From NCBI GenBank assembly GCA_964558915.1, contig CAZLFV010000002.1:20501-84500 (forward strand): a stretch of DNA of 64,000 bases. The letters run 5' to 3'. The notes under the pieces were generated by a model. That model worked only from the letters and a program-made list of their open reading frames with translations. It was not told where the DNA came from and did not search any database. Numbering within the stretch: the first letter of the stretch is position 1; every line of letters starts with the position of its first letter. Positions 16,639 through 22,555 of the stretch are shown in pieces. The position numbers and the translations under genes were made by a program. The stretch is from an uncultured Eubacteriales bacterium. GTDB taxonomy: Bacteria; Acidobacteriota; Aminicenantia; Aminicenantales; UBA8522.

Positions 16639-18978
16639 TTACCGCCAGGTGTACTTGGCCATGTTGCCGCCCAGACTTCCGATGGAGTCCGCGAGCAATT
16701 GAGCGATATAGAGGGGGTTGTGGATGAACCCGCAGGGTTCCTTCTTGCTCATCTGAAAATTATAGGCGGCCTTGAGCATGGCCGCGCTGAATCCGTACCC
16801 GTTGCTGGAAGTGAGCTCAGCAGGGTCTGCAATTCCGTCCCCGTCGGTATCTTTAAAGAAATATGGATAACTTATTTCGCTATAGACAATCGGGGCGCCG
16901 ATACTCCTCCCGTAGGCCTGAAGCTGCGTGTAAAGCGCGTCCTCGAGGCCCTTGATCTCCGCCTGCAGGGATTCGTTCTTGTTCCCATCTCCGTCGTAGT
17001 CAGGAGTCTGGGCCGGCCGGATCCCTTCGAACTCGAACTGGCTGGGGTCAGCGCCTGGATGGGGCTGGGCGATGTCCTGGCCATGGCAGGGCGCGCAATC
17101 GGCGGGGTTGGGTGCTTGGACGTTGTGGAATAAGGCGTCCGAATCATCGTGCTTCCTGTTGAAGCTCTTGGTTCCCATGTGACACTCGACGCAATTCGTA
17201 AAAAGCCCGTTGTGGTTGGTGAATATATTGCGGCCGGCATAGGTTTTTCCGCTGAATTCGTATCCGCCGCGGACTTCGGAACCGAAGAAGGAAGCCGCCG
17301 CTGCATAATAATGGATATTGGTGAAGCTGTACGGTCCCGGGCCGCCGGCAATCGCCCTGTCAACCGAGGACTTCGAAGCTCTTCCCTGGTGGCAGTTGAG
17401 GCACAGGTTGGAGCTGTCGGCCAGGTTCACGCTCACTCCGGAGGGAAATGTCACCGGACCGGCTGGCCTCGTCTGGGGCGGCACAATATGGCAGGTCAGG
17501 CAGAGCAGGCCGTTGGAAATATCCATGGCCTTGTCAATGGTGCCGTTATCGAGCAGGTAGGGGAGGCCTTGGGCGCTGTGGCATTTGGCGCAAGTTGACG
17601 GAACCTCTCCCTCCCCGTCCCAATGCCTCCAGGCCTCGGCTGATCCGTCGAAATGCCCTTCATCAGTCCGGACAAGTCCGCGGCCGGAGCCGGGTGCATA
17701 TTGCAGATAGGCATCCGCGGCCGATTCCAAGGAGCTTCGGGCAAGAATCTCATCATTCGGCAAAGGAAAGGTTCGCTCTTGGCCGCCCGCCTTAGACCGG
17801 CGCCCCGGCCGCAAGGGCCGCGTAAGACTTGGTTTCGAGACCGGAGTCTGGGTAGCGATTTCGGCACCTCTTGAAGTATTAAGGTCCTCGATTGAATCGT
17901 AAAGGAGTTCGATGATGTATTTTCCGTTATGAACATACTGGCATGGGTCTTTAATGCAAACCTGGAGGTTATAAGCGGCCTTGAGCAGGCGGGCGGTGAA
18001 GGAGCTATACCCGTTGCTTGACTCTGCCTCATTGGAGTCGACAACTCCGTTGTCGTTTTTATCATTGAAGAAGTAGGGATACGCGATTTCGTCGTAGGCG
18101 ATCGGCTTCCCGACGACATCTCGTGCGTAAGCGCGCATCGCGTTGTACAGAATCTCCCGGATTGTCTCGATCTCGTAGAAAATCCCCTCGGTGATATTCC
18201 CGTCCCCGTCGTAGTCAACCCAGGAGCCGTAATAGCGGATGTTTTTTGGGTTTTTGACCCCAGTGTGACAGGTGTTGCAGGCGTCCAGGTCAACCTCAAG
18301 AGAGTGCGGATCATGACAAACCTGACAGGCGTTGTAGCCGGGAATATGGGCGAACCGGGAGTCGTAAGATTTTTCGGCGTATTGATATCCTCCCCGGACG
18401 ACGGTCCCGAGCTGAGTAGCGGCAGCGGCATAGTAGTGGACATTGACAAACCTCAGCCTGGAACTCGGTTCATCGTCTGAGGTGACGCCTGACCCAGCGA
18501 TCGCAGTGTCGACAGATTTTGTCGAGGCCCTTCCCTGGTGACATTCCATGCAGAGCGTTTCTGGGCCGAGGCCTTCGATTTTCACTCCCGAAGGAAAGAT
18601 TGCATAGGTGCGGTTATGGACGACGCCTTTATCAGGGTCGGAATGGCAGGCGGCACACTCGACCGTTGTGCCCAGAGGAGCGGCATTGTCGACCGTATCC
18701 GGTGCAGTTCCGTCGGCGCCCAGATAATCCCTCAACCCGGGCGTGCTGTGGCACTTGGCGCAGGTTGTCGGGACCTGGCCTTCTTCATCCCAGTGCTTGA
18801 AGGCTTCGTCCCCTTTTTGAGCATGCGCCGAAGTAGACCACAGTCTTTGCGCGTGATCTCTTTTTGACTGAGGTTTTATGACCTCGTGGCTGGCCGTTCT
18901 TGCCAGGAGAAACGAACAGATCGCAATGACAGCCAAAAGGCCTAAAAGGTATGGTCTCCTGAACATCGTCTCCTCCAA
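16639..18978 (-). CDS. Decahaem c-type cytochrome built from two tandem pentahaem modules (putative cell-surface component)
   Basis: Module 1 has CAKCH, CAACH, CMECH, CQVCH, CNTCH. Module 2 has CAKCH, CLTCH, CLNCH, CVECH, CAPCH. The two ~350-aa halves are clearly colinear (HWDxEGxVPxTCAKCHS, FPSGV, CxxCHQGRAS, HYYAAAA, RGGY, YDGDGN, YPYFF, NGY, LKAAYN). N-terminal signal peptide. Confidence 0.85.
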   Translation of the reverse strand: MEETMFRRPYLLGLLAVIAICSFLLARTASHEVIKPQSKRDHAQRLWSTSAHAQKGDEAFKHWDEEGQVPTTCAKCHSTPGLRDYLGADGTAPDTVDNAAPLGTTVECAACHSDPDKGVVHNRTYAIFPSGVKIEGLGPETLCMECHQGRASTKSVDTAIAGSGVTSDDEPSSRLRFVNVHYYAAAATQLGTVVRGGYQYAEKSYDSRFAHIPGYNACQVCHDPHSLEVDLDACNTCHTGVKNPKNIRYYGSWVDYDGDGNITEGIFYEIETIREILYNAMRAYARDVVGKPIAYDEIAYPYFFNDKNDNGVVDSNEAESSNGYSSFTARLLKAAYNLQVCIKDPCQYVHNGKYIIELLYDSIEDLNTSRGAEIATQTPVSKPSLTRPLRPGRRSKAGGQERTFPLPNDEILARSSLESAADAYLQYAPGSGRGLVRTDEGHFDGSAEAWRHWDGEGEVPSTCAKCHSAQGLPYLLDNGTIDKAMDISNGLLCLTCHIVPPQTRPAGPVTFPSGVSVNLADSSNLCLNCHQGRASKSSVDRAIAGGPGPYSFTNIHYYAAAASFFGSEVRGGYEFSGKTYAGRNIFTNHNGLFTNCVECHMGTKSFNRKHDDSDALFHNVQAPNPADCAPCHGQDIAQPHPGADPSQFEFEGIRPAQTPDYDGDGNKNESLQAEIKGLEDALYTQLQAYGRSIGAPIVYSEISYPYFFKDTDGDGIADPAELTSSNGYGFSAAMLKAAYNFQMSKKEPCGFIHNPLYIAQLLADSIGSLGGNMAKYTWR

Positions 18979-18984
18979 TTCCTC

Positions 18985-20850
18985 TTAGTTCCAGCGGTAG
19001 CCAAAGGAGAACTCGAAGATGTTGGCCGCATAATTGTTGGATCCGGACAGTTTTTCGAGGTAGTCGACGCATCTGTAGCCGACCTGAGCCATGTAGCCGG
19101 CAGTAAAAGAATACTGGATGTACGCCTTGAGCGTGGCCCGGCGGATTTCCCAGGATCCGGCGTTGGAGAAGTAGTTGGCACAGCCGCCAAAGGTCCAGTT
19201 CTGGTTGAGGTCATATGAGAGCAGCACATCCAGCAGGCTCGATCCCTGCAGGTAAGAGATCGTCCAGAGGAATGACCCGCTAGGCGTGGTCCAATAAGGA
19301 GGAAATTCGACCATCCGGTCGGCCCGGCGTCTGGCCCGAATATAGGCAAACCCTCCGGAAACATTGAACCGGCCGGCGTGGTACCCGGCGCGCAGGCTGA
19401 ATTGGTTTCCGGACGCCTTCCAGGTATTTTCATCGAATACATCTGTCTCGGAGTTGTTCCAGATGTAGGACCCGGAGAAGCTCCAAGCCTTGACTTGATA
19501 TTTTGCCGTGATCCGGAGCCTATCAAAGCAGCTCGGGGAAATGAGGGCGAAGGGATTCTCGACCTGGCTGTGCTCGTAGTCAAGGGTTAGCTTAAGTACT
19601 CGCGAGATATCCCATCTGAGATTGCCGAAGGCGCCATTGCTTGCCGTGTCGAATTCATATTCGGCCGTTTCCAGGTTTTTGAGAGTCCGTTCCTCAAAAT
19701 GATAGCCGAGGGTTAAGGCCAAGTAGGGAGTGAAGGAGTACTGAACGCCTGCGTTGAATCCCAGAGTTTCATATCCAAAATCCTCTGTGTCGCCGCCTTG
19801 GTCGCCAGTCATAGCGCCGGTTTGGTCAAAGTTGTGAAAACGGAAGGCGGCCATAACCGTGAGCTTGCTTGACAAGGTGTATGTGGCATCCAACTCGTAG
19901 AGCTGGATGTTACGGGAGAAGTCTCCCTTGCCGGTATAGCTGTAGGCGAAATTTCTATTCAGGTAGCTGACCCCGAGTGCTCGCTCGGAATAATCAAGGT
20001 CCATGTCGAGCGCCGATAATTGGACCGATGCAGTCAAGAAGAATCTGTCCGTCGGCCTCGCATTGAACCAGAAAGAGCTGGTTACGGATTTCAAATCGTA
20101 GGGCTGATTCAGGAAAAAATAATAGAGTGAGGCGGGGTTCTCGGCCTCCGGCCCGCCGTCCACGTACCCGGGCAGGAAGAGGCTGTTCTGGTTCTTATAC
20201 TTCAGGAATTTTTCTTCTGCCACAAAGGAATAGCGGTTGAAATGGAGGTTCAAACCGACAGCGATCTCTTTCGACTCCTCCTGGACTGGCTTGTCCATCT
20301 CGAATTCCATCCGGTTGACGTTGAGGCTAGTTGTGCCCGCCCCCTTTTTAGTAAACCGGTCGAAGCTCAGATAAAAGTCGGCTTGCTTGGCCAGGGAGAT
20401 TCTGGCCAAGCCGCTATCCCTGACCCGGTCAAAATCGAAACGGTGAAGGTCATAAAGCCCGCCATCGCCCATATTCAGGTCATTATAGAAATAGTTCGCT
20501 TTTCTCCTGTCGTACTGCAATAGATACTTGCCATACTTCTGGAGCGATGCGGAGATAGTTTCGAAGGGATCTCCACCCAGGTTGAACATCCGGAGGTTCA
20601 GCCGGTCAAAAACTTTTTTGAGGTCGTTCTGCGGAGAATAGACCAGGTTGAAACTATAAAGCCGGGCGCCGCCGGAGAGATTGTAATCTTCTTTATAGTT
20701 GGAGACAGCGCCGGGCCCGCTGAGGTTTACGGAGCGAAACCCAAGGAGGAAATCGCCCGAAAAGTCACTGTTTTGGGCTCCCAGAGAGAGAGACAGGAAG
20801 AACGCCAGAACAACACCCAGGAATGCCGTGATTGTCTTTCTGCTGTTCAT
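18985..20850 (-). CDS. Outer-membrane beta-barrel protein, putative MtrB/PioB-like porin of a porin-cytochrome complex
   Basis: Signal peptide MNSRKTITAFLGVVLAFFLSLSLGAQ, preceded by AGGAGA. About 600 aa of alternating amphipathic beta-strand pattern. The terminal FEFSFGYRWN is an OMP-like aromatic-rich C-terminus. Flanked by decahaem genes on both sides. Confidence 0.65.
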   Translation of the reverse strand: MNSRKTITAFLGVVLAFFLSLSLGAQNSDFSGDFLLGFRSVNLSGPGAVSNYKEDYNLSGGARLYSFNLVYSPQNDLKKVFDRLNLRMFNLGGDPFETISASLQKYGKYLLQYDRRKANYFYNDLNMGDGGLYDLHRFDFDRVRDSGLARISLAKQADFYLSFDRFTKKGAGTTSLNVNRMEFEMDKPVQEESKEIAVGLNLHFNRYSFVAEEKFLKYKNQNSLFLPGYVDGGPEAENPASLYYFFLNQPYDLKSVTSSFWFNARPTDRFFLTASVQLSALDMDLDYSERALGVSYLNRNFAYSYTGKGDFSRNIQLYELDATYTLSSKLTVMAAFRFHNFDQTGAMTGDQGGDTEDFGYETLGFNAGVQYSFTPYLALTLGYHFEERTLKNLETAEYEFDTASNGAFGNLRWDISRVLKLTLDYEHSQVENPFALISPSCFDRLRITAKYQVKAWSFSGSYIWNNSETDVFDENTWKASGNQFSLRAGYHAGRFNVSGGFAYIRARRRADRMVEFPPYWTTPSGSFLWTISYLQGSSLLDVLLSYDLNQNWTFGGCANYFSNAGSWEIRRATLKAYIQYSFTAGYMAQVGYRCVDYLEKLSGSNNYAANIFEFSFGYRWN

Positions 20851-20860
20851 CACTGTTCTC

Positions 20861-21756
20861 CTATTTGAGGAATTTCTTGTCCAGGTTCGAACCATGAATC
20901 GAGGAATGACAGGTCACGCAATTGGTCCCCTGAGAAGTGAAACTGCCGTGCCAGGCCGGCGCCTCAGAGTGACAGCTGAAGCACAGGTCGGCGATGTTCT
21001 GCTCAGTCAACATATGGCGGTTGGGCGACCCATGGGCCTGGTGGCAGATATTGCAGCCCTCGACCCGGGAGGCCTGGTGTTCATGGAGAAAAGGACCCCC
21101 TTTGTCGGTGTGGCAGCGGATGCACTCCTCTTGTTTGAACCCGGCCAGTCGTATCCGGAGAGCCGGTTCATGCGGATTGTGGCAGGAAGTACAGGTTACA
21201 ATTCCTTCCTGAAGCCGGTGCCGCCTATTCAGCTGGAACTCGGCGAAGACGTCCTCGTGGCAGCGCGCGCAATCTGTGTTTTTCTGAGTTTTGAGAAGCG
21301 GAGAAGCAGCAACCTCGCCGTGAATGTGGTGGCAGGTGGTGCAATCGAGCGAGGCTTTCCCATGCGGGCTGTTGGTGAACCGGGGGCTGTCTTTTTCATG
21401 ACAGGTCAGGCATTTCTGCGTTTTTGCGCTGGCCGGGTTGGAGGCGGCAAAAGAGAATACGCCCGCCTTGCCTCCTTCGTCCACGTGTTGTTCCGCGCTC
21501 CCGTGGCAGGCCGTGCAGGTCGGTTCGGTCAAGCCGGCATGGGGCCGGGAGGAGAATCTCTTGACCACTTCTTCGTGACAAGTGCCGCACGTTTGCGTGT
21601 CTTTCGCCTGGGCTGTCGGCTTGGCCGCGACCCCAACGCGACGACGGCGGCGAATGCGGCCATGAGGCCGATCGTCGAGAGCGGGGCAGTCCTTAATTTT
21701 CTTTTCCTTTGTGCTGACAACTCCAACCTGCTTGAGAAACTCTTCGTCCATCTCAT
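20861..21756 (-). CDS. MtrA/DmsE-like periplasmic decahaem c-type cytochrome, apparently frameshifted near the 5' end
   Basis: 10 CxxCH in about 240 aa: CGTCH, CTACH, CLTCH, CTTCH, CARCH, CTSCH, CIRCH, CNICH, CFSCH, CVTCH. The haem frame (ATG 21751) has no hydrophobic leader. The overlapping frame from ATG 21756 encodes KRKLRTAPLSTIGLMAAFAAVVALG. Confidence 0.8.
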
Positions 21757-21799
21757 CTCTTTATTGACTAAACTTATCTATTCTATAAATTCCATAGGT

Positions 21800-21918: not shown

Positions 21919-22383
21919 TCAGCGTCGAACTCGGGCTTTCTCCTTGCCTTTGGCCTTCTTTTTTCCGCAGACATCCAGGACGTACTGGAGGGTGACCCTT
22001 TCGAAATAGTTTTTCAGGATCTGGCTGGCCTCTTTCCAGATCTCGTAGGCGGCGCAGGTCGGGAGACGGTCGCAAAAATCTTTATCCTCGATGCAGTCGA
22101 CGAGGGCGCAGGACCCTTCCAAGGCTTCCAGAATTTTGCAGAGATTGATCTCCGACGGCTTGCGGGCGAGAGTATAGCCGCCGCCCGCGCCGCGAATGCT
22201 TTTTACGAGCTTGTAGATCTTCAAAGGGATGATGATCTGCTCGAGGTAGCGGAGGGAAATCTCCTCCTCCTCAGCCACGTTTCTCAGGATGACTGCCTTT
22301 GTGCCGCTGGTATAATGGCGGGCGAGGTTTAACATGAGGCGGAGGCCGTATCTTCCCTTGGTGGAGACTTTGATCATGCTCAC
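21919..22383 (-). CDS. Rrf2-family transcriptional regulator with a Cys cluster (probable Fe-S sensor)
   Basis: MIKVSTKGRYGLRLMLNLARHY plus a winged-helix region (ISLRYLEQIIIPL, SIRGAGGGYTLA). Cys cluster CALVDCIEDKDFCDRLPTC. Lys-rich tail. Confidence 0.85.
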   Translation of the reverse strand: MSMIKVSTKGRYGLRLMLNLARHYTSGTKAVILRNVAEEEEISLRYLEQIIIPLKIYKLVKSIRGAGGGYTLARKPSEINLCKILEALEGSCALVDCIEDKDFCDRLPTCAAYEIWKEASQILKNYFERVTLQYVLDVCGKKKAKGKEKARVRR

Positions 22384-22555
22384 CTCCTTAATAACAAGTT
22401 CGCAGCGATGATGATAAAAACCCTGCGCAACACAAGTATTTTATTTGAATTTCTCAGTTATTTCAACATAATTTTATAGATTCTATAAGAATTATAAGAA
22501 AATATAACCCCGGCCCACAACGGAGCCCCGTCGTTCGTCGGAGCACCGCTTCGGC

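Follow-up and report, generated by a model that had tools for sequence, protein, structure and literature searches.

Within the window, i.e., the whole stretch of 64,000 nucleotides that has been analysed, the minus-strand ORF at 20861..21751 has a 296-aa product with ten CxxCH motifs. Judged by profile and structure matches, it belongs to the periplasmic decahaem cytochromes of the DmsE/MtrA type, and it opens an outer-membrane conduit operon with the order cytochrome/barrel/cytochrome. The NCBIfam model TIGR03508 (DmsE family) is matched from profile position 2 to 257 of 258 (E = 7e-53), with a score of 179.7 bits that stays below the curated cut-off of 192.2, and a further match is obtained to chain A of PDB entry 6r2q (E = 1.3e-25), which we take to be the MtrCAB complex of Shewanella baltica. 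Relatives with 70-72% identity carry the JGI name 'DmsE family decaheme c-type cytochrome'. Downstream, the operon continues with the genes of an outer-membrane barrel and of a large multihaem cytochrome (Table 1), for which omega values of 0.145 and 0.09, respectively, have been determined on this lineage. The 621-aa barrel has shown no match to the MtrB/PioB NCBIfam model and only a weak one to the GSU2204 family. The order of cytochrome, barrel and cytochrome genes is conserved in all fetched loci (L002-L011).

The decahaem ORF carries no hydrophobic leader, as its first 40 residues (MDEEFLKQ...RRRRRVG) are polar and hydrophobicity ahead of haem 1 peaks at a 12-residue Kyte-Doolittle mean of only 0.24. 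An ORF that overlaps it on the same strand, 21529..21756(-), begins with MRWTKSFSSRLELSAQRKRKLRTAPLSTIGLMAAFAAVVALG, comprising an n-region and an h-region with a best 12-residue mean of 2.5, and ends in a basic junk tail. The two frames are offset by a single base at a minus-strand GGGG run (plus-strand CCCC, 21631-21634): the leader frame proceeds through the codons TTG(21636-34), GGG(21633-31) and TCG, and with GTC (21631-29) the haem frame is taken up again. When one G is added to the run, a 298-aa protein is obtained, in which the signal peptide ends with ...AAFAAVVALG-VAAKPTAQA, the body continues with KDTQTCGTCH, and the ten CxxCH motifs occupy positions 57-280. An earlier sequence-only reading had described the one-nucleotide offset at the C4/G4 run, the leaderless haem frame, the n- and h-region of the overlapping frame and the joining of leader and KDTQTCGTCH body by one extra G; this layout has been reproduced with base accuracy, both ORFs having been found, and the computed 298-aa product aligns across the junction with unsplit homologues. 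The upstream part of the haem frame, which gene callers have chosen as the N-terminus, is only fortuitously open and is closed by a TGA in the sister species.

Regarding the start of the leader frame, the same reading had proposed position 21756. An ORF does exist from this ATG, but it is the TTG at 21720-21718 that is conserved as a start, and the ENA and JGI gene calls in relatives begin there. The upstream ATG is missing from L014, L015, L010 and L016. Since the arrangement GGAGG-6 nt-TTG is conserved and the upstream ATG is absent in several relatives, the TTG is to be taken as the real start, and the precursor would have 286 aa. The Shine-Dalgarno region reads AAGGAGG in all four conspecific contigs that cover it and in 6/7 other aligned species, with the core GGAGG present in all of them. 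At position 21730 the window has C and the other sequences G, as has also been confirmed in L043; the change from GGAGG to GCAGG is thus private to the window strain, GGAGG being otherwise invariant in the alignment. Translational coupling to an upstream mini-ORF (MDEEFLKEV, closed by a TGA just before the TTG in the sister species) has been considered and rejected, its stop not being conserved in L009 and L014. The -10 rule of the automatic promoter scan needs a T at position 6, hence the TATAAA hexamer listed in Table 1 was missed by it.

Table 1. Features of the decahaem cytochrome locus, in the order of transcription (positions refer to the window).
Feature	Positions	Strand	Evidence
Sigma-70-like promoter of the mtrA-like operon, TTGACA-17-TATAAA	21800..21828	-	Read in the sequence; hexamers and spacing kept in sister species and genus relatives
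Haem frame upstream of the run, fortuitously open (MDEEFLKQ...RRRRRVG), N-terminus of gene callers, not a signal peptide	21632..21751	-	Hydrophobicity 0.24 vs 2.5-3.3 in 24 relatives
Shine-Dalgarno region, AAGCAGG in the window	21727..21733	-	5' alignment; SNP at 21730
TTG, conserved start of the 286-aa precursor	21718..21720	-	6 nt after GGAGG; kept in all aligned relatives
Signal-peptide segment, leader frame, 30 codons, MSAQRKRKLRTAPLSTIGLMAAFAAVVALG	21631..21720	-	From conserved start to run, 20/30 residues identical to sister-species leader; hydrophobic core with 12-residue mean 2.5
GGGG run, site of a one-base deletion from ancestral GGGGG or GGGGA	21631..21634	-	G4 in the window and five conspecific contigs
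Remainder of the leader ORF past the run, out of frame, 33 codons and stop, basic, non-homologous, SRPSRQPRRKTRKRAALVTKKWSRDSPPGPMPA	21529..21630	-	Translation; no NCBIfam family match
Signal-peptide end (VAAKPTAQA/KD) and mature decahaem domain, ten CxxCH, -1 frame relative to leader	20861..21631	-	TIGR03508; PDB 6r2q chain A; 2003 homologues
Outer-membrane barrel gene, MtrB position, 621 aa, intact	18985..20850	-	Starts 10 nt after decahaem stop; aligns over 1-621 to sister-species protein
Multihaem cytochrome gene, MtrC position, 775-779 aa, intact	16639..18978	-	Full-length alignment to sister-species protein

Homologues of the joined protein are numerous (2003 in total, the close ones having ~286 aa), and the alignment with the closest unsplit ones, e.g., P0002 and P0003 at 71-72% identity, covers 96% of the joined protein and includes the junction. 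The N-terminus of an example homologue, LPATTKRKWNRISLPTIALCAAVMAVVGLGVAAKPAQQAKD, matches the leader frame of the window up to LG and the haem frame from VAAKP on. As the leader aligns with orthologous signal peptides and the joined protein aligns across the junction, the match between leader and body is not a matter of chance. At the level of 90% identity, the cluster of the window ORF contains three distinct split sequences together with six unsplit ones, which are located on contigs of 85% nucleotide identity and represent a sister species. In these unsplit cluster members the site reads CTGGGGGTC or TTGGGGATC, and in L009 and L015 it reads TTGGGGGTG; a run of five G has been found in L006, L007, L009 and L015, and GGGGA in L008 and L014. 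An in-frame hydrophobic leader on the haem frame, with a best 12-residue mean of 2.5-3.3, is present in 24/24 relatives, namely in 19 GTDB species from this order plus another 5 sequences on metagenome contigs. The sequence-only reading had envisaged that orthologues might share the split and use another export signal; the orthologue comparison has instead yielded unsplit genes throughout. Between the Shine-Dalgarno region and the run, no compensating second indel has been detected relative to the sister species. These alignments show that the ancestral state was one continuous ORF and that this lineage has lost one G. An in-frame Sec leader is present in the inferred ancestor and absent from the haem frame of the window.

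The run of four G is shared by the window and the conspecific contigs L002 (ENA ERZ27245483, a k141 contig of 26.7 kb), L003 (ENA ERZ781360, a NODE contig of 18 kb), L004 (Logan SRR5215464), L005 (JGI 3300022551, 14 kb) and L043 (JGI Ga0209725). These derive from MEGAHIT-style and SPAdes-style ENA assemblies, from Logan and from two JGI metagenomes; their identity with the window amounts to 99.8-99.9%, in alignments of up to 12.9 kb. Among the conspecific contigs, 13 SNP positions and one 3-nt indel have been counted, which define at least four haplotypes. When the species-specific flanks were searched with a pattern that tolerates either G4 or G5, G4 alone was returned, and Ga0209725 was added to the set. 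On the strength of these assemblies, the G4 deletion is to be regarded as real DNA, shared by all members of the species that have been sampled.

c-type cytochromes receive their haem after Sec export, and several ways round the lesion have been considered. The sequence-only reading had made a proviso for an in-frame non-canonical start that supplies a leader. This has been checked and no such start exists, the haem frame being devoid of a hydrophobic stretch before haem 1 from any start. A Tat signal at the RRRRR stretch has likewise been rejected, as only about five apolar residues follow. A substitute paralogue has not been found in the 87%-complete genome, where the sole other match lies in a different multihaem protein, along a stretch of 35% identity; with this degree of completeness, a second, unassembled copy may exist.

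The selection regime of the gene has been described with a GY94-type codon likelihood model that assigns a separate omega to the terminal branch of the window (eight taxa, 255 codons). For the haem gene, omega on this branch is 0.148 (approximately 0.09-0.245, profile likelihood) vs 0.127 for the background (p = 0.59), and omega = 1 is rejected on the window branch with p = 2e-13; the genes of the barrel, the 775-aa cytochrome, POR and Rrf2 behave alike. If the gene has evolved neutrally since the deletion, the neutral share of the branch amounts to at most about 13%. With a branch omega near the background and omega = 1 rejected, the lesion is therefore young. At the level of divergence, the selection signal fits a young pseudogene or a working gene equally. 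A parsimony count had suggested an acceleration (21 derived amino-acid changes in this lineage vs 1 in the sister), and this has been discarded because the codon likelihood shows a long branch with normal omega.

Within the species, 4/13 variable sites fall into the 891-nt haem ORF (binomial p = 0.01, or 0.045 when an adjacent pair is taken as one event), among them the two amino-acid changes T276A (L005, L043) and F294L (L002-L004) in columns that are 94% and 97% conserved, respectively, among 125 homologues. The barrel protein carries L326W at a near-invariant Leu in four conspecific contigs. The contrast in nonsynonymous to synonymous changes between the haem gene and the other genes, which relies on few sites, is not significant (Fisher p = 0.21), and the few polymorphic sites give a hint only of relaxed constraint since the deletion. 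Several observations count against a null allele: the rest of the gene is flawless, with all ten CxxCH motifs, no stops and a branch omega indistinguishable from the background; the downstream barrel and cytochrome genes are still intact; and it is a little surprising that all sampled haplotypes should be fixed for a null allele in a species living in ferruginous sediment, a setting in which a conduit ought to be of use.

The best explanation for the split is, in our view, a recent species-wide inactivating deletion, and it is quite probable that the allele is null or a very strong hypomorph, i.e., a young pseudogene. A genuine inactivating mutation had been one of the options of the sequence-only reading, and it has emerged as the best supported of them, given the G4 run in six contigs, the unsplit state in 24/24 relatives, and the failure to find another export signal or a paralogue. 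A single G has been lost from an ancestral G5 run in the signal-peptide coding region, which splits the Sec leader from the decahaem body. Ribosomes that initiate at the conserved TTG would then synthesize a 63-residue leader peptide with a basic junk tail and meet a stop 33 codons after the run. If the haem frame is translated at all, from the fortuitous ATG at 21751, the result would be a leaderless cytoplasmic apoprotein, which would receive no haem because the attachment of c-type haem, by a Ccs/ResB system encoded nearby, is periplasmic. Background slippage would contribute about 0.1% at most, and the conduit would be left without its inner cytochrome. By extrapolation, about 670 nt of untranslated mRNA in front of the barrel gene could add polarity. 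In Shewanella, MtrA is needed to keep MtrB from degradation (bioRxiv 10.1101/2025.06.06.657845); extrapolated from there, the loss of MtrA would remove a partner that MtrB needs, so that the lesion may disable the whole module.

Among the alternatives to this inactivating deletion, a leaky 'pseudo-pseudogene' has retained the most credit. Here, unprogrammed low-level -1 slippage of tRNA-Gly on G_GGG would still deliver a little exported MtrA, and the allele would be a tolerated hypomorph. Since the junction falls within the signal peptide that is cleaved off, a peptide spanning both frames would not be expected in the mature product. The geometry of the site is exactly right for such slippage, as GGG (21633-31) can shift back by one base and pair perfectly on 21634-32, after which GTC is read and the orthologous ...ALG-VAAKP is restored; moreover, the lesion is fixed in six contigs while gene and operon otherwise look selected, and the category as such has a precedent in the G-run indels of herpes thymidine kinase (PMC5009743). 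Against it stands an E. coli study of all Z_ZZN tetramers, in which even a strong pseudoknot had an effect on A_AAG, U_UUC/U, C_CCU/C and A_AAA only, and motifs alone gave ~0.15% vs a background of 0.11%; G_GG.G was not shifty, its apparent signal being ascribed to spurious initiation, a result that may not transfer to this phylum (PMC4066793). The surroundings of the run offer no stimulator either: the 111-nt downstream fold has z = -0.19, with 73/200 shuffles folding as well, and the 30 nt before the run contain no GGAGG-like element that could act as an upstream Shine-Dalgarno-like stimulator. In addition, the window strain has weakened the Shine-Dalgarno sequence of the very ORF whose translation would be needed, and variants have appeared at conserved residues. 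We therefore regard such leakiness as unlikely. The more specific proposal that the species keeps G4 because slight -1 slippage delivers a trickle of exported MtrA, i.e., a fixed hypomorph that throttles the conduit, is distinctly unlikely; if true, it would mean compensatory frameshifting on only four G in a free-living bacterium.

Phase variation, in which the run would toggle between G4 (off) and G5 (on) by slipped-strand switching and the consensus assemblies would display the off-state, has in its favour that a change in homopolymer length is the typical product of replication slippage and that G5 would be the ancestral on-state. A run of four G is, however, far too short for classical phase variation or for transcriptional slippage. 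The tracts of known contingency loci far exceed this length, with usually at least 7 bases, and at 4-5 G the mutation rate is only slightly above that of ordinary sequence. All six contigs, though from different samples, have G4, and G5 has not been found in the flanks of the species, which makes switching very unlikely.

A programmed, regulated -1 ribosomal frameshift that gates the whole conduit has only two points in its favour, namely that G_GGG is compatible with a slip and that the site lies in the leading gene of the operon. Programmed sites are conserved across species, and the two-frame arrangement is confined to one 99.9%-identical species, all 24 relatives being unsplit. The RNA that flanks the run is almost the same as in these unsplit relatives and is free of significant structure, the motif belongs to the non-shifty tetramers, and no dedicated tRNA is apparent: the anticodon loop of tRNA-Gly(CCC) has the normal 7 nt, and the tRNA is 100% identical to its counterparts in six species whose genes are unsplit. 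A sufS-like suppressor tRNA-Gly has been rejected on the same ground, which covers CCC only, tRNA-Gly(UCC) being unassembled. Of the -1 slip that the sequence-only reading had suggested as a gate of the conduit, the geometry is thus possible, but the restriction to one species, the missing structure, the motif and the ordinary tRNA-Gly speak against it, and a programmed event appears extremely unlikely. Finally, a homopolymer sequencing or assembly error, which had also been listed there and for which one may invoke that the source genome is a fragmented MAG (194 contigs, 87% complete), is effectively excluded, since G4 is found unanimously in six independently assembled contigs, which represent at least four haplotypes and as many pipelines or more, the five G of related species (L006, L007, L009, L015) have been assembled correctly within this sequence context, and seven neighbouring genes show no other frame-breaking indel vs the sister species.

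Taking the inactivating deletion as the preferred reading, the locus calls for caution when iron reduction is predicted from genomes, as the marker hit is probably non-functional in this species. The 296-aa ORF is annotated as an intact decahaem cytochrome, and tools that count hits would score an iron reducer. Of the sample accessions, SRR5215464, the run behind one contig with this allele, is the only one that was traced in the literature; it is listed in the data statement of a study on the ferruginous sediment of Lake Towuti, which proposes Aminicenantia MAGs to be iron reducers (PMC12740246). This inference does not hold for the species if the product of its sole MtrA-type gene cannot be exported, although the sister species is intact. 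Two co-occurring sister species that differ in the first gene of the conduit constitute a natural knock-out comparison. The lesion itself is an ordinary homopolymer indel of modest ecological interest, and it becomes interesting molecularly only with demonstrated slippage.

Compared with known systems, the gene resembles MtrA/DmsE of the Shewanella MtrCAB type in its ten CxxCH motifs within about 255 mature residues, in the full-length match to TIGR03508, in the following genes of a ~620-aa barrel and a large multihaem cytochrome, and in the Sec-type leader with an AxA site that its relatives carry. It differs in that the score remains under the cut-off (179.7 < 192.2), the barrel lacks an MtrB/PioB match and the outer partner is not MtrC-like; furthermore, the leader is out of frame in the window species, and the encoded product would not be an exportable precursor. 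With the bacterial programmed -1 sites of dnaX and IS3/IS911, the run shares a Z_ZZN-type tetramer, G_GGG, and cognate -1 re-pairing. Those sites, however, consist of X_XXZ_ZZN or of Z_ZZN with Shine-Dalgarno-like and hairpin or pseudoknot stimulators, of which none is seen here, and the present motif is neither among the efficient ones (A_AAG, U_UUC/U, C_CCU/C, A_AAA) nor phylogenetically conserved. The 'savior indel' with compensatory frameshifting (PMC5009743) is similar in that a one-base indel has occurred in a G run and slippage could restore some product, and different in that the cited example has a run of 7 G, here 4. With homopolymer-indel pseudogenes, the gene has in common the single-base loss in a short G run within one shallow lineage whose relatives are intact. 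Relaxation at the level of divergence is undetectable here yet, and first further signs of decay, namely the Shine-Dalgarno mutation and the changes at conserved residues, are shared with this class. What distinguishes the gene from such pseudogenes is the location of the lesion in the signal peptide, which leaves the catalytic body as a perfect long ORF that is annotated as intact.

A dyad, which lies between the −10 box and the Shine-Dalgarno sequence of the split mtrA-like decahaem cytochrome gene, has been found by alignment of the 5' regions to be kept among relatives as distant as ∼70% protein identity. The gene for an Rrf2 regulator is located just upstream of it, and the dyad is a candidate operator for this regulator. 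Between the conserved dyad and the Shine-Dalgarno sequence, three loci from related species (L009, L010 and L016) carry a G+C-rich 5'UTR insertion of ∼75–90 nt (GGAAGGCAGGGTCGCC...CCTTCC), which is missing from the window and from L006, L008, L014 and L015 in the same alignment. Possible identities for this insertion are a structured leader and a small mobile repeat.

Features in and around the split gene and positions at which the window strain differs from conspecific contigs
Feature	Window position	Strand	Detail
Dyad	21770-21797	minus	CTAT-N7-ATAGAA, then TATA/GATA
Rrf2 regulator gene	21919-22383
Shine-Dalgarno substitution	21730		C replaces G within GGAGG
Barrel gene codon 326	19874		Leu in window strain
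Indel	16588		3 nt, in gap after the 775-aa cytochrome gene
Clustered SNPs	22506-22525		3, intergenic, upstream of Rrf2/POR genes

The Shine-Dalgarno substitution in the split gene has been seen in the window strain only, the GGAGG being invariant elsewhere among the aligned conspecific contigs and relatives. At the nearly invariant codon 326 of the barrel gene, the window strain has the family consensus, whereas Trp is present in all four of the other conspecific contigs covering this position. The indel and the clustered SNPs likewise distinguish the window strain from the other conspecific contigs.

ARAGORN has detected only 29 tRNA genes in the whole MAG and has not found tRNA-Gly(UCC) there, both of which are consistent with the incompleteness of this MAG (87% complete, 194 contigs).

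Regarding known systems, the sole solved-structure match of the decahaem protein is PDB 6r2q chain A, which has been aligned as a multihaem cytochrome via repeated CxxCH motifs. The structure-search table labels this chain 'Cystathionine beta-synthase'. As the entry is the Shewanella baltica MtrCAB complex, this label is apparently a mistake made at deposition or annotation.
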